A model generated the notes under the pieces. That model was not told where the DNA came from. It worked only from the letters and a program-made list of their open reading frames with translations, and ran no database searches. A DNA stretch of 64,000 nucleotides from an uncultured Candidatus Saccharibacteria bacterium. GTDB taxonomy: Bacteria > Patescibacteriota > CALEFQ01. A program made the position numbers and the translations under genes. Position 1 is the stretch's first letter. Every line of letters starts with the position of its first letter. The DNA lies in contig OZ246404.1 of assembly GCA_965230955.1 (NCBI GenBank), positions 582,410 to 646,409 of the forward strand. Direction: 5' to 3'. Below are positions 291 to 63,755 of the stretch, one piece after another.

Positions 291-302
291 GTAATTGTCT
301 AT

Positions 303-373
303 GGTCTTTAGTCTTTAGTCTTTTGTCTTTAGCAATATCGAAATCTAAAGACCAATGACTAAAGACCAAAGAC
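303..373. repeat. Palindromic tandem-heptamer element, GTCTTTG family: GTCTTTAG x4 then loop then inverted CTAAAGAC units; atpF-atpE intercistronic
   Basis: ggtctttagtctttagtcttttgtctttag ... ctaaagaccaatgactaaagaccaaagac; the two arms are reverse complements. Confidence 0.8.
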
Positions 374-377
374 TTTT

Positions 378-679
<302 letters not shown>

Positions 680-681
680 AT

Positions 682-1413
682 TTAGTGGCTCTCCACCGTC
701 GACATTTTGAGGAACACCAAGGTCAGCATGGCGAAAACAAAGGCCTGAATAAACCCGACAAATATTTCCAGGGCGATAAACGGGACCGGGACGATAAAAG
801 TCACCAGATAAGTCATCACGACCAGTAAAACTTCGCCGGCAAAAACATTACCGAACAAACGGAAGGAAAACGATACCAGCTTCGCCACCTCGCCCACCAA
901 CTCGAGAAGGCCGACGAAAAATTTCATCGGATTACTGAAATTGAGAAAACGCTTGGCGTATTTGAAAAATCCCAGCGACGCGATCCCGACCACCTGAACC
1001 GTGACCACGGTAATCGCCGCCAAGACTATCGTCAAGTTCAGATCGGCGGTAGCGGCCCGGAAAATAGGCACCACTTCCTCACTGCCCGGCTCCACTATTC
1101 CGATCGTCCCGAAGCCCGGCAATAAGCCGATCCAGTTGGCCATGATAATGTACAAGAAAAAAGAAGCTACCAGGGGAAAGAAAAATTTTGCTTGCTTGGC
1201 GTTTTCCGTGACGCCTTCCACCATATTCTGCAGTTTTTCAATCATCCATTCCACAAAATTCTGCAAACCGCGCGGACGTTCTTTCAGGCGCGAGCCGGCG
1301 ATAATAGCGAAAATAACAATAACACCCACCACGATCCAGCTGGTCAGCAAAGAATTTGTCACCGCAAACGAACCGATATGAAAAATTACTTCCGGAGTGA
1401 ATGAAATTGGCAT
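682..1413 (-). CDS. atpB: F0F1 ATP synthase subunit a
   Basis: 243 aa polytopic membrane protein with FRLFGNVFAGE and LLPGFG motifs typical of subunit a. Confidence 0.85.
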   Translation of the reverse strand: MPISFTPEVIFHIGSFAVTNSLLTSWIVVGVIVIFAIIAGSRLKERPRGLQNFVEWMIEKLQNMVEGVTENAKQAKFFFPLVASFFLYIIMANWIGLLPGFGTIGIVEPGSEEVVPIFRAATADLNLTIVLAAITVVTVQVVGIASLGFFKYAKRFLNFSNPMKFFVGLLELVGEVAKLVSFSFRLFGNVFAGEVLLVVMTYLVTFIVPVPFIALEIFVGFIQAFVFAMLTLVFLKMSTVESH

Positions 1414-8121: not shown

Positions 8122-8353
8122 TAGTGAAACCGAAGAGTTCCCTACTTTTTTGATCGCTTTTCTTTTTCATCTCCGGCGTCATCTCCTGCCAATTGGCCCA
8201 AATTCGTTCTTGCTCGGTCCTATCCGGTTCTTCGTGTATCAATTCAATCCCCGTCTCCGCCCGCCACCGATGCACCGGGTCATGTAACAAATAATTAGCT
8301 TTATCAGGATAATTCTTCCTTATCTCTTCTGTATTGTAAGGACGCTGATACAT
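8075..8353 (-). CDS. Small hypothetical protein
   Basis: 92 aa ORF, overlaps the next gene by 47 nt; coding status uncertain. Confidence 0.2.
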   Translation of the reverse strand: MYQRPYNTEEIRKNYPDKANYLLHDPVHRWRAETGIELIHEEPDRTEQERIWANWQEMTPEMKKKSDQKSRELFGFTNAQHHRNIIEDKYSK

Positions 8354-8371
8354 AATATTACTTTTGACTTT

Positions 8372-9418
8372 TTACTTATACTCATATTTTATCCGACACG
8401 CCCCCTCCCGCGACACCATACATGCCCCAATCGGTTTCTCCGGAGTGCAAGCGCACCTAAATAATTTACAATCCTCGGGGGCAATCAGCCCCTTGATCAC
8501 GTCGCCGCAACGGCAACCAGGGGTCTTTAGTCGTTGGTCTTTAGTCTTTAGCCGATAATTAGCAATAATCTTTTTGTACCGAACAGCGGCGTCGAATTTA
8601 GCGTACTTTTTCTTTATCTGCATCCCCGATTTCGGAATTTTTCCCAGTCCGCGCCATTCGCTATCGACCGGCTTGAAAACTTCCGCGATTAATTTCTTCG
8701 CCCGCCGATTACCGTTCGGTTTCACTAGCCGGCGGTATTCGTTTTCAACTTTTGACTCCCCGCAGGTAATCTGGCGCAAAAGCATAATAACCGCCAGTAA
8801 AATATCCGTCGGTTCAAAGCCCGCGATTACCTGCGGCTTTTTTATCACGCTGTATGGTTTGAGCCCGGTGATGGCCGAAACGTGGCCGGGATTGATGAAA
8901 CCGTCAATCTTGATCTGCTTATCTCGACTTAATGCCAGCATCGCCGGCGGGAAATACTTGTGGGCGGAATAAACCATGAGCCCGTGCTTGATCGCGGATG
9001 CCGTCATCGGCACCGTGGTCTCAAATCCTAGACCGAAAAAAACAACGGCCGGCTCGTCTTTTTTCCATTTCAGCGCTTCTTCGACGGAATAAACGGCTCT
9101 GACCTTGGCACCACTGGCTTTGACTTGCTCCAGACTCATTTCCGAGCCCGGTACGCGCAACACATCACCATAGCACGCGATCGGGATGCCGCTCAAGGCT
9201 AAACCAACCACGGCGTCAATATCGCTCAGCGGGGTGACGCAAACGGGACAGCCCGGGCCGGTCACGAGCTCAATTTTCTTTGGCAAAACCGCGCGCAGAC
9301 CGGAACGCGAAATCGCCTCGGTGTGCGTGCCGCAGACTTCCATGAGGCGGACTGGTTTACGAAGCGTTGCCGCTAATATTTCTATTTCGCGCGTAAGTTG
9401 TAGGGTGGATGATGGCAT
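8372..9418 (-). CDS. hypD: Hydrogenase maturation protein HypD
   Basis: CGTH, GPGCPVC, PGCRCGDV and CxxP...CMVS.EGAC motifs of HypD. Confidence 0.85.
   Translation of the reverse strand: MPSSTLQLTREIEILAATLRKPVRLMEVCGTHTEAISRSGLRAVLPKKIELVTGPGCPVCVTPLSDIDAVVGLALSGIPIACYGDVLRVPGSEMSLEQVKASGAKVRAVYSVEEALKWKKDEPAVVFFGLGFETTVPMTASAIKHGLMVYSAHKYFPPAMLALSRDKQIKIDGFINPGHVSAITGLKPYSVIKKPQVIAGFEPTDILLAVIMLLRQITCGESKVENEYRRLVKPNGNRRAKKLIAEVFKPVDSEWRGLGKIPKSGMQIKKKYAKFDAAVRYKKIIANYRLKTKDQRLKTPGCRCGDVIKGLIAPEDCKLFRCACTPEKPIGACMVSREGACRIKYEYK
8523..8553. repeat. Half-copy of the GTCTTTG-family element lying in-frame inside hypD
   Basis: gtctttagtcgttggtctttagtctttagcc reads on the coding strand as RLKTKDQRLKT, immediately before the conserved PGCRCGDV. 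Confidence 0.6.
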
Positions 9419-9492
9419 GGTCTTTGGTCTTTAGTCTTTGGTCTTTGGCCCAGAAAAAGCCGGCTAAAGACTAAAGACAAAAGACTAACGAC
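9419..9492. repeat. Palindromic tandem-heptamer element (GTCTTTG family), hypD-hypC junction
   Basis: ggtctttggtctttagtctttggtctttggcc ... ggctaaagactaaagacaaaagactaacgac; abuts the hypD ATG. Confidence 0.8.
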
Positions 9493-9697
9493 CCTTAGCA
9501 AAATCCGCCAACGCCGATTTCGCTTCCTTACTATCTAAAACCCCAATAGCAAACCCCGTATGCACCGTAACATAATCCCCGGCCTTGGCCTCCGGCACCA
9601 ATTCCAGGCTCACTTCTTTTTTTAAACCATTAAATGAAACGACCGCGTGGCGGTCGCGATGGAGTGAGATGATTTTACCGGGGATTGCTAAGCACAT
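9485..9697 (-). CDS. hypC: Hydrogenase maturation chaperone HypC
   Basis: Starts MCLAIPGKI, the HypC N-terminal signature; 70 aa. Confidence 0.8.
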   Translation of the reverse strand: MCLAIPGKIISLHRDRHAVVSFNGLKKEVSLELVPEAKAGDYVTVHTGFAIGVLDSKEAKSALADFAKGR

Positions 9698-9721
9698 GAG
9701 AGGTTGGAGCTATAGATTGCC

Positions 9722-9797
9722 AGTCTTTGGTCTTTAGTCTATAGTCTTTGGCCATAAAATATTCAGGCTAAAGACAAAAGACCAACGGCTAAAGACC
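9722..9797. repeat. Palindromic tandem-heptamer element (GTCTTTG family)
   Basis: agtctttggtctttagtctatagtctttggcc ... ggctaaagacaaaagaccaacggctaaagacc. Confidence 0.8.
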
Positions 9798-9800
9798 TTT

Positions 9801-10163
9801 TCAGCAAGTAGTATGAATTAAAGCATTAACTACTTTATTTTCCTTAACCAAATCATTGTACGTACGAACCGCCTGCGGAGTGATCTGGATAATCAAACGC
9901 GGCACGGCGCCTTCCAGTTTGAGGGAAACCTCTTCATCAACTTCCAGCACGCCTTCCTGTCCGGTACCGATCAAAATCACGTCCGGGTTTCCGCTTAGTA
10001 ATTTGGCCGTTTCCCAATCTCCGACCCGGTGGGTGGTCTTAAATAGTTCATGTAATTTTTTGGCGTCGCGCTCCTCCACCTTATCGCCAATAATCAAAAC
10101 CTGGCCGTATTTTTTGCCATTGACGGTGATCGAGCCGAATTCGCAGGAATCGATTATGGGCAT
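9801..10163 (-). CDS. Mth938-like domain protein; true start MPIIDS, the longer ORF N-terminus is repeat read-through
   Basis: About 120 aa, ends ...ALIHTTC as Mth938/DUF498 members do. ATG at 10161-10163 directly abuts the repeat. Confidence 0.45.
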   Translation of the reverse strand: MPIIDSCEFGSITVNGKKYGQVLIIGDKVEERDAKKLHELFKTTHRVGDWETAKLLSGNPDVILIGTGQEGVLEVDEEVSLKLEGAVPRLIIQITPQAVRTYNDLVKENKVVNALIHTTC

Positions 10164-10230
10164 GGTCTTTAGTCTTTGGTCTTTAGTCTTTGGCCACGCT
10201 TTCAGGCTAAAGACCAACGACGAAAGATCT
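10164..10230. repeat. Palindromic tandem-heptamer element (GTCTTTG family)
   Basis: ggtctttagtctttggtctttagtctttggcc ... ggctaaagaccaacgacgaaagatc. Confidence 0.8.
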
Positions 10231-10232
10231 TT

Positions 10233-11072
10233 TTACACCGCACCCTTAATATCCCTAATCTCCGCATACCGAAACACCGGTCCCTCGTCGCAAACCAATT
10301 TCGGCCCGATGCCGCAATGATGGCACTCGCCCACCCCGCACTGCATATGGCGCTCGAGTGAGATATAAATATCTTCGTCTTGAATATCATGTTTATGCAA
10401 GGCCTCGATCACAAATTTGCACATAACCGAAGGACCGACGATAAAAACCAACGGATGACCGACTAATTTCTTATTATCAACCAAGGCGGTGATCAACCCT
10501 TCATCGCAGACGACAGGGCCCTTTTCTCCGCAATGCTTGTCGACCGTCAGTTCAACTTTGATTTTTTTCCGCCACTCTACCAATTCAGTTTTGTATAATA
10601 AATCGGCTTCACTGCGCGCCCCGTAAAAAAGCTGAACTTCTTTAAAATTTTCCGGCCGAGCGATAGCATCCAAAACAATCGCTCGGAGCGGGACAATCCC
10701 TATCCCACCGGCAATAACGAGCAAATTACGATTTTTCAGCAATTTAGTCGGAAATGATCCTTTCCCGAGAGGCCCGCGGATACCGATCATATCACCGGGT
10801 TTTTTCTTGTGCAGTTCCGATGTCAACCGGCCAACCGCCCGCACCCCGATTTCAAAAGTGTCGGTTTTGAAAGAAGACGACGCGATTCCCACCGGCGCTT
10901 CGCCGTAGCCAGCGATTGAAAACATGACGAATTGACCGGGCAGAAAATAAAAATTATTCTGATCGGCCGGATCGGTAAATTGCAAAACAAAAGTCTTCAC
11001 CCGCGGCGCTTCGTCGCGGATTTGAGTTATTTTAGCCGGTTTTGGTTCGTAGTTATTGATCATTGCTTTCAA
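10233..11072 (-). CDS. FAD/NAD-binding plus C-terminal [2Fe-2S] oxidoreductase subunit, sulfhydrogenase gamma (HydG) / AsrB / PyrK-like
   Basis: Ferredoxin-reductase-type fold with C-terminal CGVGECHHCG...C cluster motif; start is TTG at 11072 or ATG at 11063. Confidence 0.65.
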   Translation of the reverse strand: MKAMINNYEPKPAKITQIRDEAPRVKTFVLQFTDPADQNNFYFLPGQFVMFSIAGYGEAPVGIASSSFKTDTFEIGVRAVGRLTSELHKKKPGDMIGIRGPLGKGSFPTKLLKNRNLLVIAGGIGIVPLRAIVLDAIARPENFKEVQLFYGARSEADLLYKTELVEWRKKIKVELTVDKHCGEKGPVVCDEGLITALVDNKKLVGHPLVFIVGPSVMCKFVIEALHKHDIQDEDIYISLERHMQCGVGECHHCGIGPKLVCDEGPVFRYAEIRDIKGAV

Positions 11073-11449
11073 GTAAGAGTCCTTGGTCTTTGGTCGTTAG
11101 TCTTTGGCCCGAGGAGAGATTTAATTAAAGAACTCAGCAAATTTCCAACTTGGTGACACCGGGCTAATTCGTCATCCACCTTCACTTGATACAATTTTTT
11201 CAGCAGATATAAGATAGTCACCGTCTCGTACAAAGATCCTCTGGATATTCTCAGATATCTGATAAATTCCTTGTCGCTATTACTACTTTGCCCCTCCGCG
11301 ACATTGAGCGAGACAGAAGTCACCGCCCGCCGCAATTGAGCTAACAAACCAAATTTCTCGATGGACGGGCACTTTTCCTGGAAGCGGTAGATCGACTCGG
11401 CCAAAAACATAGCCGCTTGCCAAACTCTTAAACGTTCAAACTTGTACAC
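11069..11449 (-). CDS. Four-helix-bundle protein (the family found in 23S rRNA intervening sequences)
   Basis: About 120 aa helical protein with the LRRA..S..LNIAEG and RGSL.E motifs of this family; C-terminal codons (GPKTNDQRPRT) are read from the repeat half-site. Confidence 0.6.
   Translation of the reverse strand: MYKFERLRVWQAAMFLAESIYRFQEKCPSIEKFGLLAQLRRAVTSVSLNVAEGQSSNSDKEFIRYLRISRGSLYETVTILYLLKKLYQVKVDDELARCHQVGNLLSSLIKSLLGPKTNDQRPRTLT
11082..11110. repeat. Left half-site of a GTCTTTG-family element, separated from its partner by the four-helix-bundle gene
   Basis: ggtctttggtcgttagtctttggcc with no adjacent inverted arm. Confidence 0.7.
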
Positions 11450-11471
11450 AATCCCTCCTCTATAATTAATT

Positions 11472-11496
11472 GGCTAAAGACCAAAGACTAAAGACC
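11472..11496. repeat. Right half-site, inverted partner of 11082..11110
   Basis: ggctaaagaccaaagactaaagacc; reverse complement matches the left half. Confidence 0.7.
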
Positions 11497-11507
11497 TTTT
11501 AAAAATA

Positions 11508-12485
11508 CTACTTCCCATCCTTTATCCTCTGAATATTCTTCATAATATCAATCCCCACCGGGCAAACTTTGATGCATCGGCCGCAGCGGACACAACCGGG
11601 GACTTTGTAGCGCGCCGGATCACGGACGAATTTGTGTTCGTACCAGTAGTAAATTCTCTTCTCGGTATCATCTAGAAAACGGTGATCGCCGGCAATTCGG
11701 GAAAAATCCGGAAAGAAACAAGCCGACCATTCCCGTTTGCGGCGCTGTTCGCCGCTTTTGACTTTCGATTGATCGTCGATATTGAAACAATAACAAGTCG
11801 GGCAGGCCAAGGTGCATTTCCCGCAGGCCAAACAGATTTTGCCCAGTTCCGCCCAAAGCGCCTGATTATAACCGCTCTCCATCTTGCCCTTGATCTCAAC
11901 CATCTCGCGATCCATTCCTTCCTCGGAAATCGGACCGGCATATTTGATATGATCATAATTACGATAACCGAATTTTTCCAACAACCGCTGGCCGTCCTCC
12001 GAGCCGGTATAGACCTTGAAATTCGTTCCGGATTTTTCCAGGAAAATATCGAATTCAAAATGCTCCAAAACATTTTCCCGAAAGCGATCCTGAAAAGCGC
12101 CGAATTCCCGCTGATCGGTCGGCGCCATCGATTGACCGATCACAATGGTTTGTCGTTTCCGCTCCTGGTAATAAACATCGGAGGCGAAAACCTGATTATA
12201 CAAATCCAGCGCGCGCAGATCCAAAACAGTCAGGCCAAACAGCACCTGGGGCTTGCCCACTTTTATTTTCTTGAAAACTTCGCCGTGAATATTGAACATC
12301 GTCTCGGTCGCCGGCAGGAAAAACTTGCGCCAGGGATAATACGTCAGTTGGCCGTTCAGCTTCAGCTCTTCCGGATCGCCGATTTTTTGCGCCAAAAAAC
12401 GCCCATCGCTCTCGACCGGGCCGTACACCAGATTGCCTTCTTTGATCAGGAAGGCGGTGAAGTTTTTTAGTTCGGGGATGGTCAT
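11508..12485 (-). CDS. Iron-sulfur subunit with 2x[4Fe-4S], sulfhydrogenase beta (HydB) / AsrA-like
   Basis: CLACGKCTLACPTC and CVRCGRCIKVCPVG ferredoxin-type motifs; 325 aa. Confidence 0.65.
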   Translation of the reverse strand: MTIPELKNFTAFLIKEGNLVYGPVESDGRFLAQKIGDPEELKLNGQLTYYPWRKFFLPATETMFNIHGEVFKKIKVGKPQVLFGLTVLDLRALDLYNQVFASDVYYQERKRQTIVIGQSMAPTDQREFGAFQDRFRENVLEHFEFDIFLEKSGTNFKVYTGSEDGQRLLEKFGYRNYDHIKYAGPISEEGMDREMVEIKGKMESGYNQALWAELGKICLACGKCTLACPTCYCFNIDDQSKVKSGEQRRKREWSACFFPDFSRIAGDHRFLDDTEKRIYYWYEHKFVRDPARYKVPGCVRCGRCIKVCPVGIDIMKNIQRIKDGK

Positions 12486-12488
12486 GAT

Positions 12489-12540
12489 AGTCTTTGGTCT
12501 TTAGTCTTTGGTCTTTGGCTAAAGACTAAAGACTAACGAC
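12489..12540. repeat. Palindromic tandem-heptamer element (GTCTTTG family) with almost no loop
   Basis: agtctttggtctttagtctttggtctttgg|ctaaagactaaagactaacgac; starts 3 nt from the 11508..12485 ATG. Confidence 0.8.
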
Positions 12541-12576
12541 AAAAGGCCTTTCGGGAAAGCGCCAAAACTTACACAT

Positions 12577-13716
12577 TTACGTCAGCAATAACCAAATCCC
12601 AAACCCCACCAACATACTACCCATCAACAGTTTCATCCATTTTTTCGACCGGTGCTCCCATTCTTTGACCATGGTGATTTTTTTACCGGAATAAACGATG
12701 AATAAAATCACCAGCAGGGGCAGGATAAACATCAGATTATAAATACCGAGATAGCCCACCGTCGTCAGCCGGCTCAGTCCCGAACGAGACAATATATCAA
12801 GTGTCCCGGCATAGAGCGGCAAGGAGCAAGGCATCTCAAAGATAGTCACCAAGGCACCCAAGACCACCGTGGCCGAGATAGTCGCCTTGGCGACCCAGCC
12901 CTGCAGGTACGGCCGAATATATTTGGGTATTTCCAAGCTGAAACCCCGGCCGGGCCAGAAAAAATCTTTCAGATTAATCGCGCCGGTTATTACCAGTATA
13001 GCCCCCAATACCAGGTGAATCAAATTAGAAACGACGGCGTACTGGGGAGTTTGGCTAAAAGTCAAAAGAACCTGATAAAAAAGCAAACCGATGACAAAAT
13101 AAGTGGCAAAAACCGTGATGATATAAATGATTCCGATATTGAGCACCCGTCCCGGCTGTTTGGCAAAAACAATCAGATAACCCAGTAAAAAAACCAGCAT
13201 GCCGATAGCGCAGGGATTTATGCCATCAGCCAATCCGACACCCAAGACGGCACTCAAAGCAATGGCATTGGTCGAAATACCGGAATCAGCTTTTCCTTCT
13301 TCCTGCCCCTGGACAATTTCATTGCCTGCTTTTTCCCAAGCGGGATAGCCGCCTTGCAACACCCGAACCCGGGTAAAACCGTCATCCATCATTTGCTCCG
13401 CCGCCTCCACGCTCGATTGGCATTCGGTCGCGCCGCAATAAGCCACAATACTATCGTCGTGCCGAGCGATTTCGCCGATCTTGTCAATTTGGCTGAGCGC
13501 CCAAAATTTAGCGCCGGGAAGATGGCCGTTGATATATTCCACTTCGCTCCGAACATCAAGCACCAATGGCGGATTACTTCCCGCCAACTCTCTCTGGAGC
13601 TGATCGGCCGTGAGATACTCCACGCCGCGGGCGGCTTGTCCGAAAATCGGCCACCCGGCACAGGCGCCGACCGCTAACATCGCGAGAAATATAAGAAATT
13701 TATTTGCCATCATCGT
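12577..13716 (-). CDS. Periplasmic rhodanese domain fused to a CcdA/DsbD-family thiol-disulfide transporter
   Basis: Rhodanese-like domain with active-site Cys (CGATECQ), followed by a multi-TM CcdA-like domain with a conserved Cys pair. Confidence 0.6.
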   Translation of the reverse strand, partial: TMMANKFLIFLAMLAVGACAGWPIFGQAARGVEYLTADQLQRELAGSNPPLVLDVRSEVEYINGHLPGAKFWALSQIDKIGEIARHDDSIVAYCGATECQSSVEAAEQMMDDGFTRVRVLQGGYPAWEKAGNEIVQGQEEGKADSGISTNAIALSAVLGVGLADGINPCAIGMLVFLLGYLIVFAKQPGRVLNIGIIYIITVFATYFVIGLLFYQVLLTFSQTPQYAVVSNLIHLVLGAILVITGAINLKDFFWPGRGFSLEIPKYIRPYLQGWVAKATISATVVLGALVTIFEMPCSLPLYAGTLDILSRSGLSRLTTVGYLGIYNLMFILPLLVILFIVYSGKKITMVKEWEHRSKKWMKLLMGSMLVGFGIWLLLT

Positions 13717-20542: not shown

Positions 20543-20551
20543 AATTTTTCA

Positions 20552-20604
20552 AGTCTTTGGTCTTTAGCTGTTGGTCTTTGGCTAAAAACCAAAGACTAAA
20601 GACT
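20552..20604. repeat. Palindromic tandem-heptamer element (GTCTTTG family)
   Basis: agtctttggtctttagctgttggtctttgg ctaaaaaccaaagactaaagact; lies about 10 nt from the 19883..20542 ATG. Confidence 0.8.
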
Positions 20605-20842
20605 ATTTTAGAGCTTTATCAATCTCATCTTTATTAAATCCCAAGATCATCTTGGCGCTTTCGCCCTCGCCGATATAAATGACCGGCACCCCCATCTGCC
20701 CGCTGCGCTGGACGGCTTCTTCGGCGTTTTTAGGATCGCTGACGTCTTTTTCTTCGTATTTGGCGCCGATCTGGCTGAAATACTGCTTGGCCATAGTGCA
20801 ATAACCGCACGACGGCGAAGTGTAAATAAGAATCTTTTTCAT
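20603..20842 (-). CDS. Glutaredoxin-like protein
   Basis: 79 aa with CGYC active site near the N-terminus. Confidence 0.7.
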   Translation of the reverse strand: MKKILIYTSPSCGYCTMAKQYFSQIGAKYEEKDVSDPKNAEEAVQRSGQMGVPVIYIGEGESAKMILGFNKDEIDKALK

Positions 20843-21490: not shown

Positions 21491-21496
21491 AAATTT

Positions 21497-21555
21497 AAGT
21501 TAAAAGGTAAAAGGCAAAAAGCAAAAACAATTTTTACCTTTTACCTTTTGCCTTA
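21497..21555. repeat. Palindromic tandem-heptamer element, AAAAGGT variant
   Basis: aagttaaaaggtaaaaggcaaaaagcaaaaa caa tttttaccttttaccttttgcctta. Confidence 0.7.
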
Positions 21556-21912
21556 GGGATGATCAAGTACTCTCGGCTTTGTTGATTTTATTTTTTCACC
21601 AATCAAAACCAAAATCGCCGCGACCATGAAAGGCACGCCGGTCAACAATGCCGGTAAAAACTCATCGCCCAGCGCCTTGGAACCGTTGTAAGTAGACAGC
21701 ATGATGCCGACAAAAGCCAGCCAAATCGGCATGGGCTCTGGTTTAAACCAAGTAAAGATGGAGACTGAAACCATTCCTAGCAAAAGCGCCAGAAAAAGGA
21801 ACGGTAGTGTTCCCTGTCCGCCGAGAAATTCCCGGCCGGCCAGGTAGACATAGAAAACCGTTGCCAGCGCAGATATCAACGCGCCGATAATTGTCAGAAC
21901 GTGTAATTTCAT
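21553..21912 (-). CDS. Hypothetical membrane protein
   Basis: Four predicted TM helices. Confidence 0.3.
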   Translation of the reverse strand: MKLHVLTIIGALISALATVFYVYLAGREFLGGQGTLPFLFLALLLGMVSVSIFTWFKPEPMPIWLAFVGIMLSTYNGSKALGDEFLPALLTGVPFMVAAILVLIGEKIKSTKPRVLDHP

Positions 21913-25810: not shown

Positions 25811-25814
25811 GATT

Positions 25815-25873
25815 GGTCTTTAGTCTTTGGTCTTTAGTCTTTGGCTAACGACAAACGACCAAAGACAAAAGAC
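25815..25873. repeat. Palindromic tandem-heptamer element (GTCTTTG family)
   Basis: ggtctttagtctttggtctttagtctttgg ctaacgacaaacgaccaaagacaaaagac; starts 4 nt from the 25064..25810 ATG. Confidence 0.8.
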
Positions 25874-25934
25874 GATACTTAGACTTTCTTTTTATCTGCG
25901 TGTATTATATCATTAGAAGCTAACAGAGCCAAAT

Positions 25935-44927: not shown

Positions 44928-46736
44928 TCACATTTTATCCGGAACGGGAATCGAAAGCAATTTTAGTGCGTTGGTCATGGTGATCAGAGTCGCTTTCAGT
45001 AGACCAACTCTGGCCGCTTGCAAAGCCGGCTCTGATCGAACCACCGAATGTTTGTGGTAAAAGGTGTTGACCAGCTTTGACAACCCGAGAACATAACGAG
45101 GAATCAGCGCGGTATCATAATGAGTAGCTGCTGTGATCACCGTATGGGGGAAATCCGCGATTGTCCGTAGAAGCGCTTTTTCTTCGCCCGAATCCAACTT
45201 TCCGTAATCCAAGACAGGATTAGAATCCTCGGTTGTGATTTTAGCTAGGATGCTTCCGATCCTGGTCACCGTATACTGAATATATGGCCCGGTATCACCT
45301 TGAAGATTGAGCGACTTGGCGGGATCAAACGTCATTCCGATTCGCGGAGTCACCAAGAGGATATAGAAATTGATTGCGCCAATAGCTACTTGATGCGCAA
45401 TCTGTTTTGCTTCCGCTTCTGGCAGGGACTCCTCTCTCTGACCGATCTTTTCCAGCACCATCTGCTCGATATCCTTCAGTAAGTCATCAGCGTCCACCAC
45501 CTTTCCTTCACGAGATTTCATCCGACCTTCCGGCAGTGATACCATCCCATAGGAAAAGTGATATAAGCCTTTGGCCCAGGGATAACCAAGCATTTCCATG
45601 ATTTTGAAAAGGCACTGGAAATGATGATTCTGCTCTTCCGCCACCACGTAAATCGATCGCGCCAGAGAAAATTCTTCCTGCTTAAGTACCGCGGTTCCGA
45701 TATCCTGGGTCGTGTAGAGAGCCGTACCATCGGCGCGCAACAAAGCCTTTTTGCCCAGATCTTTAAGATCAACCTGGACCGAGCCATCAGTGTCGTGAGT
45801 GAATATTCCGCGTTCGATTCCTTTGGCAACAATATCGCGTCCAAGACCGGAGGTCTTGGATTCATAGTACCATTTGTCAAACCCGACGCCATAAGCGAGG
45901 TAAGTTTCCCGAAAACCCGAAAGTACCCATTCGTTCATTTGCTGCCACAATTCCCGGACTGCTGGAACTCCTGCTTCCCATTGTCGCAACATCGTTCGCG
46001 CGGCAGTGCCGAATTCCGAATCAGGCAAGTTGAAAAATTTTTCTTTCTCTTTGCCCTCGGGAGGCTGTTTGGGATCAAACCCTTGTTGCTTGGCCCAGGA
46101 AATGTATTCCGCGTGAAAGTGTTTTTCGAACATGACGTAGTAATTGCCCACAAAATGATCACCTTTTTGGTTCTCACTTTGCGGAGTTTTACCGTCACCG
46201 AATTTCTGGTACGCTACCATGGACTTGCAGATATGGATACCGCGGTCGTTTACCAGGATCGCCGCCACGACATCAAACCCGGCGGCTCGCAGTAATTGGA
46301 TAAGAGACCAGCCCAAGGTGTTATTGCGGACGTGACCGAGATGCAGAGGCTTGTTGGTGTTCGGGGAGGAATATTCAACCATGACTCTCTCGCTCGTCTT
46401 TGATGCCTGCCCGTAGGCCGGGCCTTCTGACATGACCTGTTCGATCACCAGTTTGGCAAAAAAAGCCGAGTCCAAGGTAACATTGACGAAGGGGCCTGCA
46501 GCTTCCGCTGTGCCGACATAATCTTTGGCCGCTAGAAAACTAGCCAACGCTGTCGCTAATGACTTAGAATCGCGCTTGACCGGTTTGGCAAAACGGAAAC
46601 ACGGAATGGAAATATCGGCCGCGACGTGAGCGGGAGGTGCCTGTATTTCGACTGGCACATCAGCAGGAAGTTTTAGGGCATCATGGACATCAGCTCGAAC
46701 TTGATCGCGCAGTTTTTGGACGGTTGTTGTTTTCAT
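44928..46736 (-). CDS. argS: Arginine--tRNA ligase
   Basis: Class I HIGH (PNTNKPLHLGHVRN), KMSK-like motif, DALR anticodon-binding C-terminus; 602 aa. Confidence 0.9.
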   Translation of the reverse strand: MKTTTVQKLRDQVRADVHDALKLPADVPVEIQAPPAHVAADISIPCFRFAKPVKRDSKSLATALASFLAAKDYVGTAEAAGPFVNVTLDSAFFAKLVIEQVMSEGPAYGQASKTSERVMVEYSSPNTNKPLHLGHVRNNTLGWSLIQLLRAAGFDVVAAILVNDRGIHICKSMVAYQKFGDGKTPQSENQKGDHFVGNYYVMFEKHFHAEYISWAKQQGFDPKQPPEGKEKEKFFNLPDSEFGTAARTMLRQWEAGVPAVRELWQQMNEWVLSGFRETYLAYGVGFDKWYYESKTSGLGRDIVAKGIERGIFTHDTDGSVQVDLKDLGKKALLRADGTALYTTQDIGTAVLKQEEFSLARSIYVVAEEQNHHFQCLFKIMEMLGYPWAKGLYHFSYGMVSLPEGRMKSREGKVVDADDLLKDIEQMVLEKIGQREESLPEAEAKQIAHQVAIGAINFYILLVTPRIGMTFDPAKSLNLQGDTGPYIQYTVTRIGSILAKITTEDSNPVLDYGKLDSGEEKALLRTIADFPHTVITAATHYDTALIPRYVLGLSKLVNTFYHKHSVVRSEPALQAARVGLLKATLITMTNALKLLSIPVPDKM

Positions 46737-48001
46737 GGATTCTTCCCTTCAATAGAATTTCGCTGCCAAGGTTGGGTCATGCAGTGAAAACCGCCATGTC
46801 CCAGTAACAACTGGGGACACGGAACGGCCACCACATAGCGCTGTTTATCCCGGATTTCAAATGTCGGATCGATAAACCGATCCGCCTGGACAAACTCATA
46901 ACCTACCCGACAAAGCTCTTCTATCGTAGCATAATTGCAGTCTGGAATCAAGGTGAGCCCGGGTCGCAAAGTGAAAAGATTTGAACCTTCCCACCGCTGC
47001 TCGCGGTCTTGGATGAGACGATCATGGCCGCCACAGGATATCAGATTGTTGACAGGAACTTTGTAATGGTCGAACGCGGTCAGGAGACTGGGAAATTCCC
47101 CGATCTTCACCGATCCATTTTCTGACAAGGTCAACGCCAGCACCTTGACACCCACTTGCCCATTAGACGGCTCAATCAGCGGTTTGTAAACCACGAAGTC
47201 CCCATCATTGATCTGGGAGTAAATCGTATCGAGGTGCATACACATGCGATCGCGTGGCATGCTGACCGCCAGAATGTTTCTGATACCGAGGTCAAATAAG
47301 GAAGTGCGACACAAGGAGAGGATTGTTTCGAGTTTGGTCCGCTCGCTAACCCCGACCATCAACAGATCTTCACGCAGGGGGAAAACGTCTCCCCCTTCCA
47401 TGTTGTAAGGTTCCTGCGGCAGAATCAAATGATCCTTTGAAAGCGAATAAACGGGATGATATTGTAATATCGCTTTCATGACAATCGCTTCGCGCATTCG
47501 AGGCACTTTGGCGAAAAGAGACAAGAAAATCTTATCCCCTACTACCGCCGCCATGTCACGTGTAAACATGGAATTTGGAATAGGATTAGCGATGACCCGG
47601 CCATCCAGTTTGCCTGAGAAAACACAATTGACGAAGTCGGTAGTCGAAAGAGCTTCGGGATCACCCATCTCTTGGTGAATTCCGATATCGAGAGCCAAGA
47701 TCTTTTTGAGATGCGAACAAGCATCAATCGTTTCCCCAAAAAGTGCCTCTAAAAACAGAACTCCAGAGGGACCGGTCACTTTTTGCATGCAGGCGACCAA
47801 AACACCGAATTCTGATCTTGCCCGAGGGACATCGAGAATGTCGTCAAACAACAGCTGCTGAGCTTGTTCTGGTGAGACTGCTTCCAAGGCAGTCTCAGGA
47901 AAATTGACGACGACCTGGCGCAATAGCCCGTTCTCATTTCGTACACACAAATTTGACACACCAGCACCACATTGACGGTTGCTTTCGCTTATTTCCTGCA
48001 T
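46733..48001 (-). CDS. Arginine deiminase-family protein (amidinotransferase superfamily)
   Basis: C-terminal catalytic GHGGFHCMTQP motif and overall ADI length (422 aa). Confidence 0.7.
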   Translation of the reverse strand: MQEISESNRQCGAGVSNLCVRNENGLLRQVVVNFPETALEAVSPEQAQQLLFDDILDVPRARSEFGVLVACMQKVTGPSGVLFLEALFGETIDACSHLKKILALDIGIHQEMGDPEALSTTDFVNCVFSGKLDGRVIANPIPNSMFTRDMAAVVGDKIFLSLFAKVPRMREAIVMKAILQYHPVYSLSKDHLILPQEPYNMEGGDVFPLREDLLMVGVSERTKLETILSLCRTSLFDLGIRNILAVSMPRDRMCMHLDTIYSQINDGDFVVYKPLIEPSNGQVGVKVLALTLSENGSVKIGEFPSLLTAFDHYKVPVNNLISCGGHDRLIQDREQRWEGSNLFTLRPGLTLIPDCNYATIEELCRVGYEFVQADRFIDPTFEIRDKQRYVVAVPCPQLLLGHGGFHCMTQPWQRNSIEGKNP

Positions 48002-49299: not shown

Positions 49300-49373
49300 G
49301 CGCCTATAGCTCAATTGGATAGAGCACCGGACTACGAATCCGTCGGTCAGGGGTTCGAATCCCCTTAGGCGCA
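49300..49373 (+). tRNA. tRNA-Arg (anticodon ACG)
   Basis: Cloverleaf folded by hand: acceptor gcgccta/taggcgc, anticodon loop cuACGaa, T-loop ttcgaat; CCA not encoded. Confidence 0.85.
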
Positions 49374-49379
49374 TGAAGA

Positions 49380-49453
49380 GCGGCTATAGCTCAATTGGAT
49401 AGAGCGCTGGACTTCGAATCCAGAGGTCGGGAGTTCGATCCTCCCTAGCCGCA
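49380..49453 (+). tRNA. tRNA-Arg (anticodon TCG)
   Basis: Acceptor gcggcta/tagccgc, anticodon stem ctgga/tccag, loop cuUCGaa. Confidence 0.85.
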
Positions 49454-49461
49454 AACGGAGC

Positions 49462-49535
49462 GCACCTGTAGCTCAGTTGGATAGAGCAGTGGACTTCTAA
49501 TCCACCGGTCGCGGGTTCGAGCCCCGCCAGGTGCA
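49462..49535 (+). tRNA. tRNA-Arg (anticodon TCT)
   Basis: Acceptor gcacctg/caggtgc, anticodon stem gtgga/tccac, loop cuUCUaa. Confidence 0.85.
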
Positions 49536-49544
49536 TGCTACAAC

Positions 49545-49618
49545 GCGGCAGTAGCTCAGTTGGATAGAGTATCAGACTCCGAATCTGAAGGCCGGGGGTT
49601 CAAATCCCCTCTGCCGCA
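49545..49618 (+). tRNA. tRNA-Arg (anticodon CCG)
   Basis: Acceptor gcggcag/ctgccgc, anticodon stem tcaga/tctga, loop cuCCGaa. Confidence 0.85.
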
Positions 49619-49623
49619 TTATC

Positions 49624-49697
49624 GGGCCAGTAGCTCAGATGGATAGAGCACGGGACTCCTAATCCTGAGGCCACGGGTTCGAATCCCGTCTGGCTCA
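49624..49697 (+). tRNA. tRNA-Arg (anticodon CCT)
   Basis: Acceptor gggccag/ctggctc, anticodon stem cggga/tcctg, loop cuCCUaa. Confidence 0.85.
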
Positions 49698-51214: not shown

Positions 51215-51313
51215 TGCTATTTTTAATTTTTAATTTTTAATCCCCAATTTAAAGATCTATAATAATTCGTAATTAGAAGTGTATCATATCCAGGCATCTT
51301 GTAAATATTCGCA

Positions 51314-53289: not shown

Positions 53290-53292
53290 ATA

Positions 53293-53367
53293 AAGTCAAA
53301 AGTCAAAAATCAAAAGTAAAAAGTTGGAATATCGAACTTTAGACTTTTGACTTTTGACTTTTTACTT
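53293..53367. repeat. Palindromic tandem-heptamer element, GTCAAAAG variant (tRNA-Gln / ftsX junction)
   Basis: aagtcaaaagtcaaaaatcaaaagtaaaaag ... ctttagacttttgacttttgactttttactt. Confidence 0.75.
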
Positions 53368-54273
53368 CCTCAAGTATCGCCCAACGGCGATTGATGAACT
53401 AATGATCCCCAACAGCACTCCCAGGGCCACCATGCCGCCGGCAATCCAAAGCATATTCTGGGTGAAAAAATGCACCATGTCAAGGCTTTCCCCTTCGAAG
53501 AAGGCTGTGATTTTAGGATTGGCGGCATTGAGAATCGGATAAAGCAAAACCAATGTAACCACCGCGCCAATAATGCCATAGATGACACCTTCCAGTAAAA
53601 ATGGCCCGCGAATAAACCAATTAGTCGCGCCGACCAGTTTCATGATTCCGATCTCCTCTTTGTGGGTATATATAGCCAGACGAACGGTATTGAAAACCAC
53701 TAAAATCGCAATTATCACGAAAGCTCCACCGACGGCGATACCGCCCTTCCGGATAGTACTGGCGATCCGCACCAGCCGGTCAATCACGTCTTTATTTTCC
53801 TGAAAATCAACTTTTAGAATTACGTCGGAGAAACGATCGCTTGATAAATAATCGGATATTCCCTCATAATCCTCAGTCTGAATCGCCTTGATCACCAGTG
53901 AGGCTTCCAGTGGATTCTCCTGGAGTTCTTCCAACGATTTCAGGATCAAATCGTCGTCTTTATGAGCTTGCTTGAATTGATTCAGCGCTTCTTCCTTGCT
54001 GATGAATTTTGTCGTCTCCACATTGTTCAAGTTTTGAACCTGCGCTCGCACCTCTAAAATTCGATCCTCCTGAGCCGCGGTTTTGAAATAAACCGTCAGG
54101 TCGACCTTCTTTTGGACCTGATCTACCGCCGCGTTGGCCAGCAAGTTCAAGATGACGATCGTAGTAATGATAAAAAGCGTCACGACCATAATAACAGTGG
54201 TCGCCACACTTAACCAAATATTGCGCCAAAAATTATCCAGACCGAATTTTACGACTCTAAGGAAACCAGACAT
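53362..54273 (-). CDS. ftsX: Cell division permease FtsX
   Basis: Four TM segments with a large periplasmic loop, paired with ftsE; the ORF N-terminus (MTFDLWLSL) is read from the repeat, so start is called at MSGFLRV. Confidence 0.7.
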   Translation of the reverse strand: MSGFLRVVKFGLDNFWRNIWLSVATTVIMVVTLFIITTIVILNLLANAAVDQVQKKVDLTVYFKTAAQEDRILEVRAQVQNLNNVETTKFISKEEALNQFKQAHKDDDLILKSLEELQENPLEASLVIKAIQTEDYEGISDYLSSDRFSDVILKVDFQENKDVIDRLVRIASTIRKGGIAVGGAFVIIAILVVFNTVRLAIYTHKEEIGIMKLVGATNWFIRGPFLLEGVIYGIIGAVVTLVLLYPILNAANPKITAFFEGESLDMVHFFTQNMLWIAGGMVALGVLLGIISSSIAVGRYLRK

Positions 54274-54280
54274 AAGGGAA

Positions 54281-54352
54281 AGCCAAAGGTCAAAAGTCAA
54301 AGGTCAAAAATTGATGAACAACTTTTTACTTTTGACTTTTTACTTTTGACTT
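54281..54352. repeat. Palindromic tandem-heptamer element, GTCAAAAG variant (ftsE-ftsX junction)
   Basis: agccaaaggtcaaaagtcaaaggtcaaaaa ... ctttttacttttgactttttacttttgactt. Confidence 0.75.
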
Positions 54353-55034
54353 AGAGTATGTACTTCCCCGTATCTTGATTGCGGACTAATTTGCCTTCGT
54401 CCATCGTAATGACTCGGCGCTTGATCGCATTCACAATTTCACGATTATGACTAACCATCACCACCGTCGTGCCCAGCTCGTTTATTTTCAGGAGTAACTG
54501 AACGATTTCCCAGGCATTGAGTGAATCCAAATTCCCGGTCGGCTCATCGGCCACCAGCAGCTTCGGCTTATGAATCAAAGCGCGTGCTATCGCTACTCGC
54601 TGTTTTTCTCCGCCGGAAAGCTGATGTGGGAAAAGATTCGCCCGCTTGCTCAAATTAACGATATCAAGAATTTTGGGAACTTGTTCTTTTATTTCGCGCC
54701 GTGAACGTCCGCAAACTTCCATGGCAAAAGAAACATTCTCCGCCGCCGTCTTTTTTTCCAATAATTTGAAATCTTGGAAGACGACGCCAATCTGACGACG
54801 AAACATCGGTATATGCTTTTTTTTGATCAAACCGACGTCCCAGTTATTGACTACGATGCGTCCCTTGTCCGGCTTCTCTTCGGCAATCAACAAACGAACC
54901 AGTGTCGATTTACCGGCACCGCTCTGCCCCACAATCGTCACAAATTCACCATCAGCCACATTAAAACTGACGTCTTCCAACGCGACGACCTTTTGTTTGG
55001 CATAATCTTTACTAACGCCTTCGACCTCAATCAT
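54351..55034 (-). CDS. ftsE: Cell division ATP-binding protein FtsE
   Basis: GQSGAGKSTL Walker A, LSGGEKQR, LVADEPTGNLD; 227 aa. Confidence 0.85.
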   Translation of the reverse strand: MIEVEGVSKDYAKQKVVALEDVSFNVADGEFVTIVGQSGAGKSTLVRLLIAEEKPDKGRIVVNNWDVGLIKKKHIPMFRRQIGVVFQDFKLLEKKTAAENVSFAMEVCGRSRREIKEQVPKILDIVNLSKRANLFPHQLSGGEKQRVAIARALIHKPKLLVADEPTGNLDSLNAWEIVQLLLKINELGTTVVMVSHNREIVNAIKRRVITMDEGKLVRNQDTGKYIL

Positions 55035-62344: not shown

Positions 62345-62426
62345 TATCAGGTAACAATTAACAAGTAACAAATAAGAAAATTCCCTTCCAATTTGTCACT
62401 TGTTACCTGTTACTTGATACCTGATA
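62345..62426. repeat. Palindromic tandem-heptamer element, GTAACAA variant; overlaps the last codons of the 62403..62966 gene
   Basis: tatcaggtaacaattaacaagtaacaa ... ttgtcacttgttacctgttacttgatacctgata. Confidence 0.65.
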
Positions 62427-62966
62427 TCCCGTTTCCACCGCCTTTACATTATCATCCGGTAATTTTTTCGGAATCGCCCGGCGCAAATTTACTTTCGATA
62501 AATCAATCTCCAGGTAAGCCAAGAGAGAACCCAGCGCGATTGTGCTGCCATAAATCGGCTTGCCGAATTTTTCTCGCCCCAGGCCAAAAAAATCATGAAC
62601 ATCGCCGTCGGTCCGCACTCCTTTTTGGGCAATGATATTGCGCCCGGTGAATTTCTTGCCGGTCACCCCAAGTTCGAGCAGAAAATCAGCTTGATCGACG
62701 ACTGGATTTACCACCTTTTTTTTATCAAACGCGATATAAGCCACACTGGCTCCGCCGCGCGAGGCCGCGTCGTAATCATTAAGGACGGTAACGTCAACAT
62801 CGAGCTGCATTAAAATCTCGCCCAAAATCGCCGCCAGCATTTTGACGCCTTGTCCGCCCGTCCCGGCCACAATAATTTTCGCGTGGTTTAACATATCCTT
62901 AATTTCCGGGCGAGCGCCCTCCTTCGCTAAAGCTACGGAGGATGAACCGCTCGCCCCTACTAACAT
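62403..62966 (-). CDS. 2-oxoacid:ferredoxin oxidoreductase gamma subunit
   Basis: IIVAGTGGQGV nucleotide-binding-like motif and size (187 aa) typical of PorG/KorC. Confidence 0.75.
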   Translation of the reverse strand: MLVGASGSSSVALAKEGARPEIKDMLNHAKIIVAGTGGQGVKMLAAILGEILMQLDVDVTVLNDYDAASRGGASVAYIAFDKKKVVNPVVDQADFLLELGVTGKKFTGRNIIAQKGVRTDGDVHDFFGLGREKFGKPIYGSTIALGSLLAYLEIDLSKVNLRRAIPKKLPDDNVKAVETGYQVSSNR

Positions 62967-62995
62967 CTCTTAATATCTTAATATTCTTAATATCT
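62967..62995. repeat. One-armed tandem heptamer run (TCTTAAT x4) directly upstream of the 62403..62966 start codon
   Basis: ctcttaatatcttaatattcttaatatct; no inverted partner nearby. Confidence 0.5.
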
Positions 62996-62999
62996 TTTT

Positions 63000-63740: not shown

Positions 63741-63755
63741 AAAATATTCTTATCC

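Follow-up and report, generated by a model that had tools for sequence, protein, structure and literature searches.

The 64-kb stretch of DNA analysed here (hereafter the window) has the minus strand as its coding strand along nearly its entire length. At 12486-12548 of this strand, between a rhodanese-SfLAP gene and a gene for a Fer4_22 protein (sulfhydrogenase beta in the naming of the Joint Genome Institute), it carries a palindromic element composed of the 5' arm GTCGTTAGTCTTTAGTCTTTAG, directly followed by the 3' arm CCAAAGACCAAAGACTAAAGACCAAAGAC, the tetranucleotide tatc and the ATG (12485). Each arm is a tandem array of one heptamer, GTCTTTR in the first and YAAAGAC in the second, and the two pair with each other as a hairpin. 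The analysis covered the window and six related contigs. The window proteins were matched only in Logan assemblies, of which contigs L121-L123 are 100% identical to the window and thus free of polymorphism, and an exact-match search for HypD gave no hit; the host is probably a Patescibacterium.

The element belongs to a large set. With at most one mismatch allowed, AAAGACYAAAGAC occurs 43 times in the window, compared with 0.17 occurrences expected, and the longest inverted repeats of the window are all heptamer elements. The inventory comprises 13 hairpins that are complete and a further one that a gene splits, besides three one-armed arrays and an array located within a coding sequence (Table 1). 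Tandem Repeats Finder, which was used to list the heptamer arrays, identified period-7 arrays of 3-4.7 copies at every element; inverted pairs make up 13 of the 16 arrays, with folding energies of -20 to -49 kcal/mol. Five families of units were distinguished: YAAAGAC (family 1), AAGTCAA (family 2), AAAGGTA (family 3), the CCAATAT/AACAAAT type (family 4) and GGTAACA/AGTAACA (family 5). The arm on the AUG side is A-rich in one family and U-rich in four. Twelve of the 13 hairpins are located in co-directional spacers (one of them preceding a tRNA gene) and one in a divergent spacer, while the window's five convergent spacers are all free of them. In-frame stops occur in two or three reading frames of most arms, a count that, with five families only, is not statistically meaningful. 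Rfam analysis of the window returned six tRNAs only and no rRNA.

The first-pass annotation had listed seven genes, i.e. hypD, the DUF498 (Mth938-like) gene, the Fer4_22 gene, the dsbA-like gene, the PNP phosphorylase gene, ftsX and atpE, whose ATG was placed 0-10 nt from a repeat arm. All seven do adjoin an arm, in repeats that are far above chance, and the spacing holds for six of them; the atpE start lies slightly further away (13-14 nt). The one-armed run reported in front of the gamma-subunit gene (start 62966) is also present, and the gene encodes the gamma subunit of a POR/OFOR enzyme, not that of ATP synthase. Further arm-adjacent genes are atpF, an 88-aa open reading frame (ORF), an ATP-grasp gene, the gene for a NAD-binding hydrogenase subunit and hypC, and one arm adjoins a tRNA-Gln gene instead of a start codon.

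The choice of these start codons is supported by several lines of evidence. Pfam identifies the proteins encoded downstream of the seven arms as HypD, DUF498 (Mth938-like), Fer4_22, a DsbA-like thioredoxin, a PNP phosphorylase, FtsX and ATP synthase c, and the models begin within a few residues of the chosen ATGs. The 120 Fer4 homologues listed are of near-equal length, with a query coverage of 90-100%, and ftsX is called as a 303-aa gene from the same ATG in Logan contig L122. Moreover, the N-termini are colinear from residue 1 with those of orthologues from relatives devoid of the elements (MTIPELKNF versus MTTDNLKQF, MCLAIPGKI versus MCLAIPGKI, and MINNYEPKP versus MINQYEPKS). These alignments indicate that the arm-adjacent starts are the true starts. 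No alternative start bearing a Shine-Dalgarno (SD) sequence was found downstream of the arm-adjacent ATGs, and therefore the objection raised beforehand, that the true starts might lie further downstream behind normal SD sequences, fails.

Syntenic contigs at graded distance from the window were found through the Fer4 homologues. Two of them lack the elements: L128 (GCA_042571345.1, 'Patescibacteria group bacterium', Fer4 73% identical) and L131 (69%). L124-L127 (Fer4 83%), L129/L130 (86%) and L133 carry elements at the same junctions, flush with the ATG, so that the elements are inherited in place across four related lineages. The orthologue of the 12486-12548 element, for instance, occurs in L124, L129 and L133 but not in L128 or L131. 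In the element-free contigs the corresponding junctions measure -56 to +4 nt at most sites, the exceptions being two junctions of L131 (23 nt between the NAD-binding subunit gene and hypC, and 37 nt between hypC and hypD), and none of these counterpart junctions contains an SD sequence. Typical element-free junctions read TAAttcATG (before Fer4), TAGATG (before hypC) and TAAaacaATG (before dsbA); the Fer4 and NAD-subunit genes overlap as ATGA in both contigs, hypC and hypD share an 8-nt overlap in L128, and the glutaredoxin and dsbA genes are 1-4 nt apart in L128 and L131. The comparison indicates that the elements entered, or grew within, junctions that possessed neither spare nucleotides nor an SD sequence, and the arm touches the AUG because the element sits within such a junction. 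These loci constitute a natural experiment, in which hairpins of 60-120 nt have been placed, in one lineage, at junctions that measure 0-4 nt in its relatives; the operons are evidently still functional.

The absence of an SD sequence between arm and AUG had been taken earlier as a hint that the elements double as translation-initiation contexts. SD potential was scored for 74 well-supported genes by pairing with a generic 16S tail, CACCUCCUUUC, from which the host's own tail may differ, with a cut-off of -8 kcal/mol and under two rules (the first ATG, or the best candidate start within the first 30 codons). SD-bearing genes numbered nine of 74 under the first rule and 15 of 74 under the second, two of these 15 being probably spurious internal sites; about 80-88% of the window genes have no SD sequence. 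None of the 15 arm-adjacent genes was SD-bearing, compared with 13 of the 59 others, a marginal difference (Fisher p = 0.058). The arms indeed hold no SD sequence: no GGAG, GAGG or AGGA motif was found upstream of the arm-adjacent starts, and the anti-SD duplexes predicted there with the generic tail range from -1.4 to +2 kcal/mol. SD-like pairing of the CAAAGAC units themselves with the 16S tail was considered and rejected (best duplex about -1.4 kcal/mol, generic tail). As strong AGGAGG sites occur elsewhere in the window, a canonical anti-SD exists. The genes quoted previously as a contrast, with strong SD sequences, have real sites, but they form an unusual minority (9-15 of 74). The lack of an SD sequence is thus the norm of this genome, and since it extends to the same junctions in the element-free relatives, where it is ancestral, the proposal that the element substitutes for a displaced SD sequence cannot be upheld. 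As far as the compared sequences tell, the elements neither displaced nor replaced an SD sequence, and the arm-adjacent genes never had one.

A side observation concerns the strong-SD genes themselves (starts 3610, 27587, 39948, 40453, 42437, 42934, 52978, 59174, 59796 and 60761). Eight of the ten scanned had no Pfam match, and they mostly follow spacers of ~55-370 nt; conserved housekeeping genes are without an SD sequence.

The predicted stems comprise 17-51 bp; they begin at -3 to +5 nt relative to the upstream stop codon, which often falls within the first unit, and end 0-14 nt before the AUG, and it is with such a stem that the initiating ribosomes must deal. The energy needed to open positions -15..+13 around the start has a median of 7.4 kcal/mol for 11 hairpin-adjacent genes versus 9.4 kcal/mol for the 59 others (p = 0.2). 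A strong general block of 30S access by the hairpin is not supported, the opening energies being within the normal range of the window except at hypD and DUF498.

Based on these observations, we suggest, with moderate confidence, that the elements are palindromic heptamer arrays comparable to repetitive extragenic palindromic (REP) elements or to rRNA intervening sequences (IVSs), that they are tolerated at stop-start junctions since the stem draws stop and start close to each other again, and that their uniformity is due to concerted evolution, selection, or both. The arms next to the AUG would represent the 3' halves of elements that are complementary to themselves, with a short array of a single heptamer forming each arm. 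In one sub-lineage such elements would occupy stop-start junctions within operons, and also a 5' leader and a tRNA leader. In the folded transcript the base of the stem would bring the upstream stop and the downstream AUG together again, as in the ancestor; SD-independent, termination-coupled initiation could then continue, and insertions would be tolerated precisely there. The ordinary cost of opening is attributed to the repeats, i.e. opening the start window may cost no more than in ordinary genes because the repeat stem can re-pair in a shifted register. The arms would be kept uniform through copying between arms and between units, through selection, or through both, and the long stem may be cleaved by RNase III, as it is in 23S rRNA IVSs. 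A functional parallel is offered by ribosome shunting in the cauliflower mosaic virus (CaMV) 35S leader and by bypassing in T4 gene 60, in which the stop-to-stem distance is short and translation resumes past the stem. This is an analogy of function only: both are single, specialised viral cases, and the crossing of the stem by ribosomes without unwinding it is, for the present elements, conjecture. The intra-operon translation of SD-less genes is poorly understood and matters for phyla in which such genes are the rule, and the junctions described here offer a concrete system in which termination-reinitiation across structure, and the processing of operon mRNAs by RNase III, can be tested. In practical terms, the elements can mislead gene callers that rely on start codons and ribosome-binding sites (RBSs).

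Table 1. Heptamer elements of the window and related loci (window coordinates unless a contig is named)
Feature	Coordinates	Strand	Genes and distances
Family 1 hairpin described first, 5' (GTCTTTR)n, 3' (YAAAGAC)n	12486..12548	-	rhodanese-SfLAP gene / Fer4_22 sulfhydrogenase-beta-like gene; arm 4 nt from ATG 12485
Family 1 hairpin	9419..9494	-	hypC-hypD junction; hypC TAG within 5' arm; 3' arm flush with hypD ATG 9418 (0 nt)
Family 1 hairpin	9719..9797	-	DUF498 gene / hypC; 3' arm 24 nt from hypC ATG 9697
Family 1 hairpin	10164..10224	-	NAD/FAD-binding subunit gene / DUF498 (Mth938-like) gene; 3' arm flush with ATG 10163 (0 nt)
Split family 1 element	11064..11507	-	5' arm 11476-11496; 23S_rRNA_IVP gene 11069-11449 in loop; 3' arm 11079-11107, just before NAD-binding subunit ATG 11063
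Family 1 hairpin	20550..20607	-	glutaredoxin / dsbA-like gene; glutaredoxin TAG part of 5' arm; 3' arm ~10 nt from ATG 20542
Family 1 hairpin	25811..25876	-	5' leader of PNP phosphorylase gene; 4 nt before ATG 25810
Family 1 hairpin	296..376	-	atpE/atpF; arm 7 nt from atpF ATG 289
Family 2 hairpin, 5' (AAGTCAA)n, 3' (TTGACTT)n	617..682	-	atpB/atpE; stem from 2 nt past atpB stop; U-rich arm 13-14 nt before ATG 605
Family 2 hairpin	53290..53368	-	ftsX stop / tRNA-Gln; arm 2 nt from tRNA 5' end 53289
Family 2 hairpin	54276..54354	-	ftsE/ftsX; ftsE TAA at stem base; U-rich arm ~6 nt before ATG 54273
Family 3 hairpin (AAAGGTA)n/(TACCTTT)n	21494..21556	-	between 119-aa ORF and 88-aa ORF (ATG 21490)
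Family 4 hairpin, 38-nt arms, CCAATAT/AACAAAT-type heptamers, inner hairpin in loop	58062..58182	-	between 293-aa ORF and 582-aa ORF (ATG 58025)
Family 5 hairpin (GGTAACA/AGTAACA)n	62345..62428	-	POR-gamma ORF ends within 5' arm; 3' arm ~8 nt before ATP-grasp ATG 62336
One-armed direct array, period 8-9, TCTTAATA on plus strand	62968..62996	-	2 nt before POR-gamma ATG 62966
One-armed direct array (ATTAAAA)3	51219..51241	-	4 nt before Orn/Arg decarboxylase ATG 51214
One-armed family 2 units AAGTAAAAAGTCAAAAGTAA, two to three, no partner arm	8354-8371	-	between hypD and next ORF (ATG 8353)
Family 1 single-arm array, four CTAAAGAC-type units	8523..8551	-	within hypD coding sequence
Further intervening-sequence protein homologue	L137, 1501-1863		
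Further intervening-sequence protein homologue	L138, 1501-1863		

The proposal of the first-pass annotation was different: the elements might double as initiation contexts, for which an A-rich standby site and a regulated hairpin were named as examples. In the form evaluated here, the arms would be dedicated contexts that take the place of the SD sequence, the hairpin opening or closing the start region. The arms do lie 0-14 nt from true AUGs, none of which has an SD sequence, the 3' arm of family 1 is A-rich, the start regions of hypD and DUF498 are costly to open (17 kcal/mol), direct (YAAAGAC)n arrays are start-enriched in the A-rich orientation (20 versus 6 of 133 among the matches listed), and the TAACTGA repeats of Beggiatoaceae offer a precedent (PMC4679880). 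However, the lack of an SD sequence is both genome-wide and ancestral at these junctions, and its contrast between arm-adjacent and other genes reaches only p = 0.058. In four of the five families the arm by the AUG is U-rich, therefore an A-rich standby site cannot be the general role, and one arm faces a tRNA gene. Opening energies do not differ overall, nor is the sense RNA favoured over its antisense (see below). A role confined to translation is further disfavoured by the hairpin in the PNP leader, which follows a good promoter match and has no ORF upstream, and by the array within hypD. We regard replacement of the SD sequence by the arms as distinctly unlikely, although the arms may still have an effect on initiation at genes other than hypD and DUF498.

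Conservation was evaluated against L133, whose lineage is about 84% identical to that of the window at the protein level. The elements are 92% identical (342/372 aligned bases), compared with 61% for the third codon positions of the flanking genes. Within the elements, identity is about 95% in the arms and about 72% in the loops (counted from the alignments, small numbers), and the differences include gain or loss of whole heptamers. In several elements of L124 and L129, GTCTTTR/YAAAGAC is altered to GTCTATR/YATAGAC, with TCTAT of the 5' arms matched by ATAGA of the 3' arms. The summed fold stability amounts to -379 kcal/mol for the sense and -392 kcal/mol for the antisense strand, with 16 versus 22 G:U pairs, i.e. 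the sense-strand G:U excess that is expected of an RNA-selected hairpin was not found. Equal stability of the two strands fits a DNA-level palindrome, and it means that the co-variation of the arms is not evidence of selection on the mRNA; DNA-level unit-to-unit and arm-to-arm copying would produce the same co-variation. A phase-variable repeat was considered as well and rejected at the strain level. L121-L123 are identical to the window and the four samples L124-L127 differ from one another by at most one substitution each, with no indel, the indels of whole heptamers being confined to comparisons between lineages; as the copy number is constant among samples of one strain, phase variation is unlikely.

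It could also be supposed that the heptamer arrays are binding sites of a sequence-specific DNA- or RNA-binding protein. Conservation of the sequence, and not of the pairing alone, would be in line with such a role, and so would the lineage-wide switch of the unit from GTCTTTR to GTCTATR; comparable proposals exist for the TAACTGA repeats (PMC4679880) and for the paired heptanucleotide arrays of Geobacter (PMC2700814). On the other hand, homogenisation of tandem units explains the conserved sequence without any binding factor, no candidate binding protein was identified, and the presence of five unrelated unit families within 64 kb means that several factors would be needed. This explanation is considered highly improbable.

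Several observations weigh against our suggestion of tolerated palindromic arrays. Conservation of the arms far above the synonymous rate could mean purifying selection for a specific function instead of concerted evolution; the window and L133 agree in all 58 bases aligned at the hypC-hypD junction, and the locus-specific loop there is fully conserved too. Neither a transposase nor a target-site duplication nor a copy-number polymorphism among strains was observed, and mobility or ongoing slippage of the elements is hypothetical. The PNP element has no upstream ORF to which initiation could be coupled. The direct (YAAAGAC)n arrays of other phyla show an orientation-specific proximity to starts, which hints that arrays are favoured as leaders. 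Finally, the opening energies of hypD and DUF498, both with zero spacing, are the second and third highest of the 74 genes; at 17 kcal/mol, a real effect on initiation at these two junctions is likely, judged from the folding model.

The elements were also compared with miniature inverted-repeat transposable elements (MITEs), which combine terminal inverted repeats with a target-site duplication and have a related autonomous insertion sequence (IS). Inverted arms are present. Among the 30 window proteins scanned there was no match to a transposase family, no IS was found in the window, and no flanking duplication is visible at the junctions in comparison with the empty sites of L128. REP elements and bacterial interspersed mosaic elements (BIMEs) of Enterobacteria and pseudomonads are multi-copy imperfect palindromes that lie within operons, are co-transcribed and form stable mRNA hairpins. 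The arms of REP elements are not tandem arrays; REP elements have a conserved GTAG head and are linked to RAYT (IS200/IS605-like) transposases. The elements of the window resemble them as multi-copy extragenic palindromes between a stop codon and the next gene. However, the arms begin with GTCTTT, AAGTCAA etc., no GTAG head and no RAYT was seen (30 window proteins scanned), and the stems are longer and AU-rich.

Another possibility is that the hairpins act, as REP-like stability or attenuation elements, on the upstream cistron, and that contact with the AUG is incidental. The hairpin would block 3'-to-5' exonucleases, partly terminate transcription or stall ribosomes at the stop, and would in this way set the relative expression of the cistrons. 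The start of the stems at -3 to +5 nt from the upstream stop is compatible with such a function, as are the multi-copy intergenic character shared with REP/BIME and the location of elements between subunit genes of unequal stoichiometry, e.g. atpB/atpE/atpF. It is less easily reconciled with the empty convergent spacers and the PNP copy, which has no upstream cistron, nor are the hairpins G+C-rich or flagged as terminators, and family 1 is devoid of a U tract. This role seems unlikely. Intrinsic terminators were rejected on the following grounds: none of the five hairpins in 8300-12700 was flagged, the number of hits equalled the chance expectation, and the stems are AU-rich, without a U tract in family 1. 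Inspection by eye likewise led us to reject integron attC sites (the neighbouring genes belong to the syntenic core, and RYYYAAC/GTTRRRY cores are missing from the arms) and CRISPR arrays (no spacers).

The split element at 11064-11507 differs from the others in that its loop, with the arms 370 nt apart, encloses a gene of the PF05635 family (23S rRNA IVS protein, IVP; a four-helix bundle; E = 4e-28), which has its own SD sequence, GAGGAGG, and a GTG start. The cassette is inserted between the Fer4 and NAD-binding hydrogenase subunit genes, which overlap in the element-free relatives, and the same arrangement was found in L124 (11019-11423) and L133 (7080-7382). In Formosa maritima and in a Cytophagales metagenome-assembled genome (both Bacteroidota), IVP homologues lie between sdhA and sdhB, with complementary, partly tandem-repeat flanks, and in L139 the homologue (1501-1848) lies between fadB-like and thiolase genes, with (CCTCAAC)3 reaching up to the thiolase ATG. 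Altogether, four of the five IVP loci examined show the junction/arm pattern, whereas the fifth, L136, lies between two tRNA genes with no paired arm evident. A metagenome scan with the IVP protein gave one locus, matched solely via an arm-encoded tail.

In the 23S rRNA of Coxiella, the IVS consists of a 28-bp stem of terminal inverted repeats with the S23p ORF in its loop, and RNase III cuts at mid-stem (PMC4990558). The layout of 11064-11507 is the same as that of the IVSs of Coxiella and Leptospira, i.e. a terminal inverted-repeat stem (~28 bp in the rRNA) with a PF05635 ORF in the loop (PMC4990558). The differences are that the elements of the window reside in protein-coding operons or by a tRNA gene and not in 23S helices (9, 25 or 45), that most copies contain no ORF, and that the stems are heptamer arrays. 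By analogy, the heptamer hairpins may be gene-less relatives of IVS-type cassettes, and cleavage of the long stems by RNase III is plausible. The occurrence of PF05635 genes in junction hairpins of three phyla points to a broader family of elements that would include the rRNA IVSs.

If this analogy is taken further, the stems would be RNase III processing sites, mRNA versions of the rRNA IVS, with the IVP copy as the 'full' form and the gene-less hairpins as its derivatives. Cleavage would split the polycistronic RNA, and the leader remaining on the downstream cistron would be short, unstructured and derived from the arm. Stems of 17-51 pairs are in or near the range of the 28-bp Coxiella stem, one loop holds an S23p/IVP ORF with its own SD sequence, conserved in three lineages, IVP genes of other phyla occupy operon junctions between complementary flanks, and processing would also account for the tRNA-adjacent copy and for that in the 5' untranslated region. 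However, substrates of RNase III usually conserve structure, while here the sequence itself is conserved, and no sense-strand bias is apparent. We consider processing as the primary explanation possible but doubtful; it is compatible with tolerance at stop-start junctions and not exclusive of it.

A bolder speculation, in our opinion improbable, is that the junction hairpins represent a general class of selfish, IVS-like cassettes of mRNAs and rRNA, with stems of tandem heptamers and in some cases an S23p gene in the loop, inserted exactly between stop and start and rendered functionally 'invisible' by shunt-like termination-reinitiation across the stem base or by RNase III excision. If true, a single mechanism would connect rRNA IVSs with the heptamer repeats near starts and with translational coupling that is independent of an SD sequence.

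The literature searches gave no account of such hairpins from Patescibacteria. The closest precedent is the group of TAACTGA repeats; REP elements, rRNA IVSs and the paired arrays of Geobacter are further close precedents. The short tandemly repeated repetitive (STRR) sequences of cyanobacteria are lineage-specific intergenic tandem heptamers, not described as obligate hairpins flush with starts. They share with the present elements the formation of lineage-specific intergenic heptamer families and differ from them in units and phylum.

TAACTGA heptamers form direct repeats upstream of start codons in marine Beggiatoaceae and in some Cyanobacteria and Bacteroidetes (MacGregor 2015, PMC4679880). 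The largest class of these arrays ends 1 nt before the start codon, an RBS is found in only ~10% of the repeat-bearing spacers, and the Beggiatoaceae genome is SD-poor (25% of genes); the arrays are direct, a single one of 170 being inverted, and no structure is predicted for them, and binding by S1, Csp or a CsrA-like protein has been proposed (PMC4679880). Both systems thus consist of tandem heptamers (2-6 copies), almost all intergenic, that end near starts with rare RBSs in an SD-poor genome. In contrast, 13 of our 16 arrays are inverted pairs with long stems, the units (YAAAGAC, AAGTCAA, AAAGGTA etc.) differ, the host is probably a Patescibacterium, and the comparative loci show arrays entering ancestrally tight junctions. 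In Geobacter metallireducens, sets of four to five tandem heptanucleotides whose two strands loop back are described as putative sites of a global regulator (PMC2700814). These, too, are paired heptanucleotide arrays at tens of loci, within and between genes, but their units are MTYCTGA and GGACCGG, and the available text reports no relation to start codons (PMC2700814).

The orientation of the elements relative to downstream start codons had been proposed in the first-pass annotation as a check of their role. It is inapplicable to the hairpins, as an inverted repeat reads alike on both strands, but it can be used for direct arrays. A pattern scan of genome contigs with AAAGACYAAAGACYAAAGAC gave at least 120 unrelated loci, mainly of Pyrinomonadaceae and Bacteroidota, in which we looked for at least three (YAAAGAC) units with an ATG no more than 15 nt downstream that begins an ORF of 80 codons or longer. 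Among the matches listed, such a start was present in 20 of 133 arrays in the A-rich orientation and in 6 of 133 in the opposite one, compared with 6.0% at random positions (enrichment p = 1.4e-4; orientation bias p = 0.009). It appears from these sequences that A-rich heptamer arrays are favoured or tolerated as leaders in many phyla, in keeping with MacGregor's account of TAACTGA in Beggiatoaceae.

Inverted-array hairpins of the form (GTCTTTG)n...(CAAAGAC)n were also encountered in Acidobacteriota (Pyrinomonadaceae, Vicinamibacterales) and Bacteroidota (L004, L021, L037, L040, L048, L054, L079 and L089), therefore neither the unit nor the architecture is confined to one phylum. In addition, L135 contains at ~1500-1600 a heptamer-array hairpin (GGTCTTT/GGTCGTT...AGACCAA/CGACCAA) on a G+C-rich contig, apparently within a coding sequence, which recalls in-frame palindromic insertions.

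Some of the less typical elements of the window deserve a separate comment. The PNP hairpin, which has no co-directional gene upstream, lies downstream of a promoter-like sequence, TTGGCT-17-TATAAT, with TG before the second hexamer (25932-25904). The L124 counterpart of the 8354-8371 junction contains TAAtcaaagcaATG only, and the one-armed array at this position may be nascent or decayed. The CTAAAGAC-type array within hypD encodes RLKTKDQRLKTP, a linker located just before a CxC motif and variable among relatives. A hairpin that is not built of heptamers was noticed at 63751-63829 of the minus strand, ~10 nt upstream of the OFOR beta-subunit ATG (63740); its 29-nt arms are 86% complementary. 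Short-read Logan contigs stop inside heptamer hairpins (the end of L122, corresponding to window position 54351; L129 3726-3762; L130 1235-1272), so that the elements break assemblies and are probably numerous genome-wide.

Apart from the repeats, the plus strand carries at 49300-49697 five tandem tRNA-Arg genes with all five anticodons (ACG, TCG, TCT, CCG and CCT). The cluster is placed directly beside argS, a gene of the arginine-deiminase family and the Orn/Arg decarboxylase gene (44928-48001 and 49826-51214, both minus strand).

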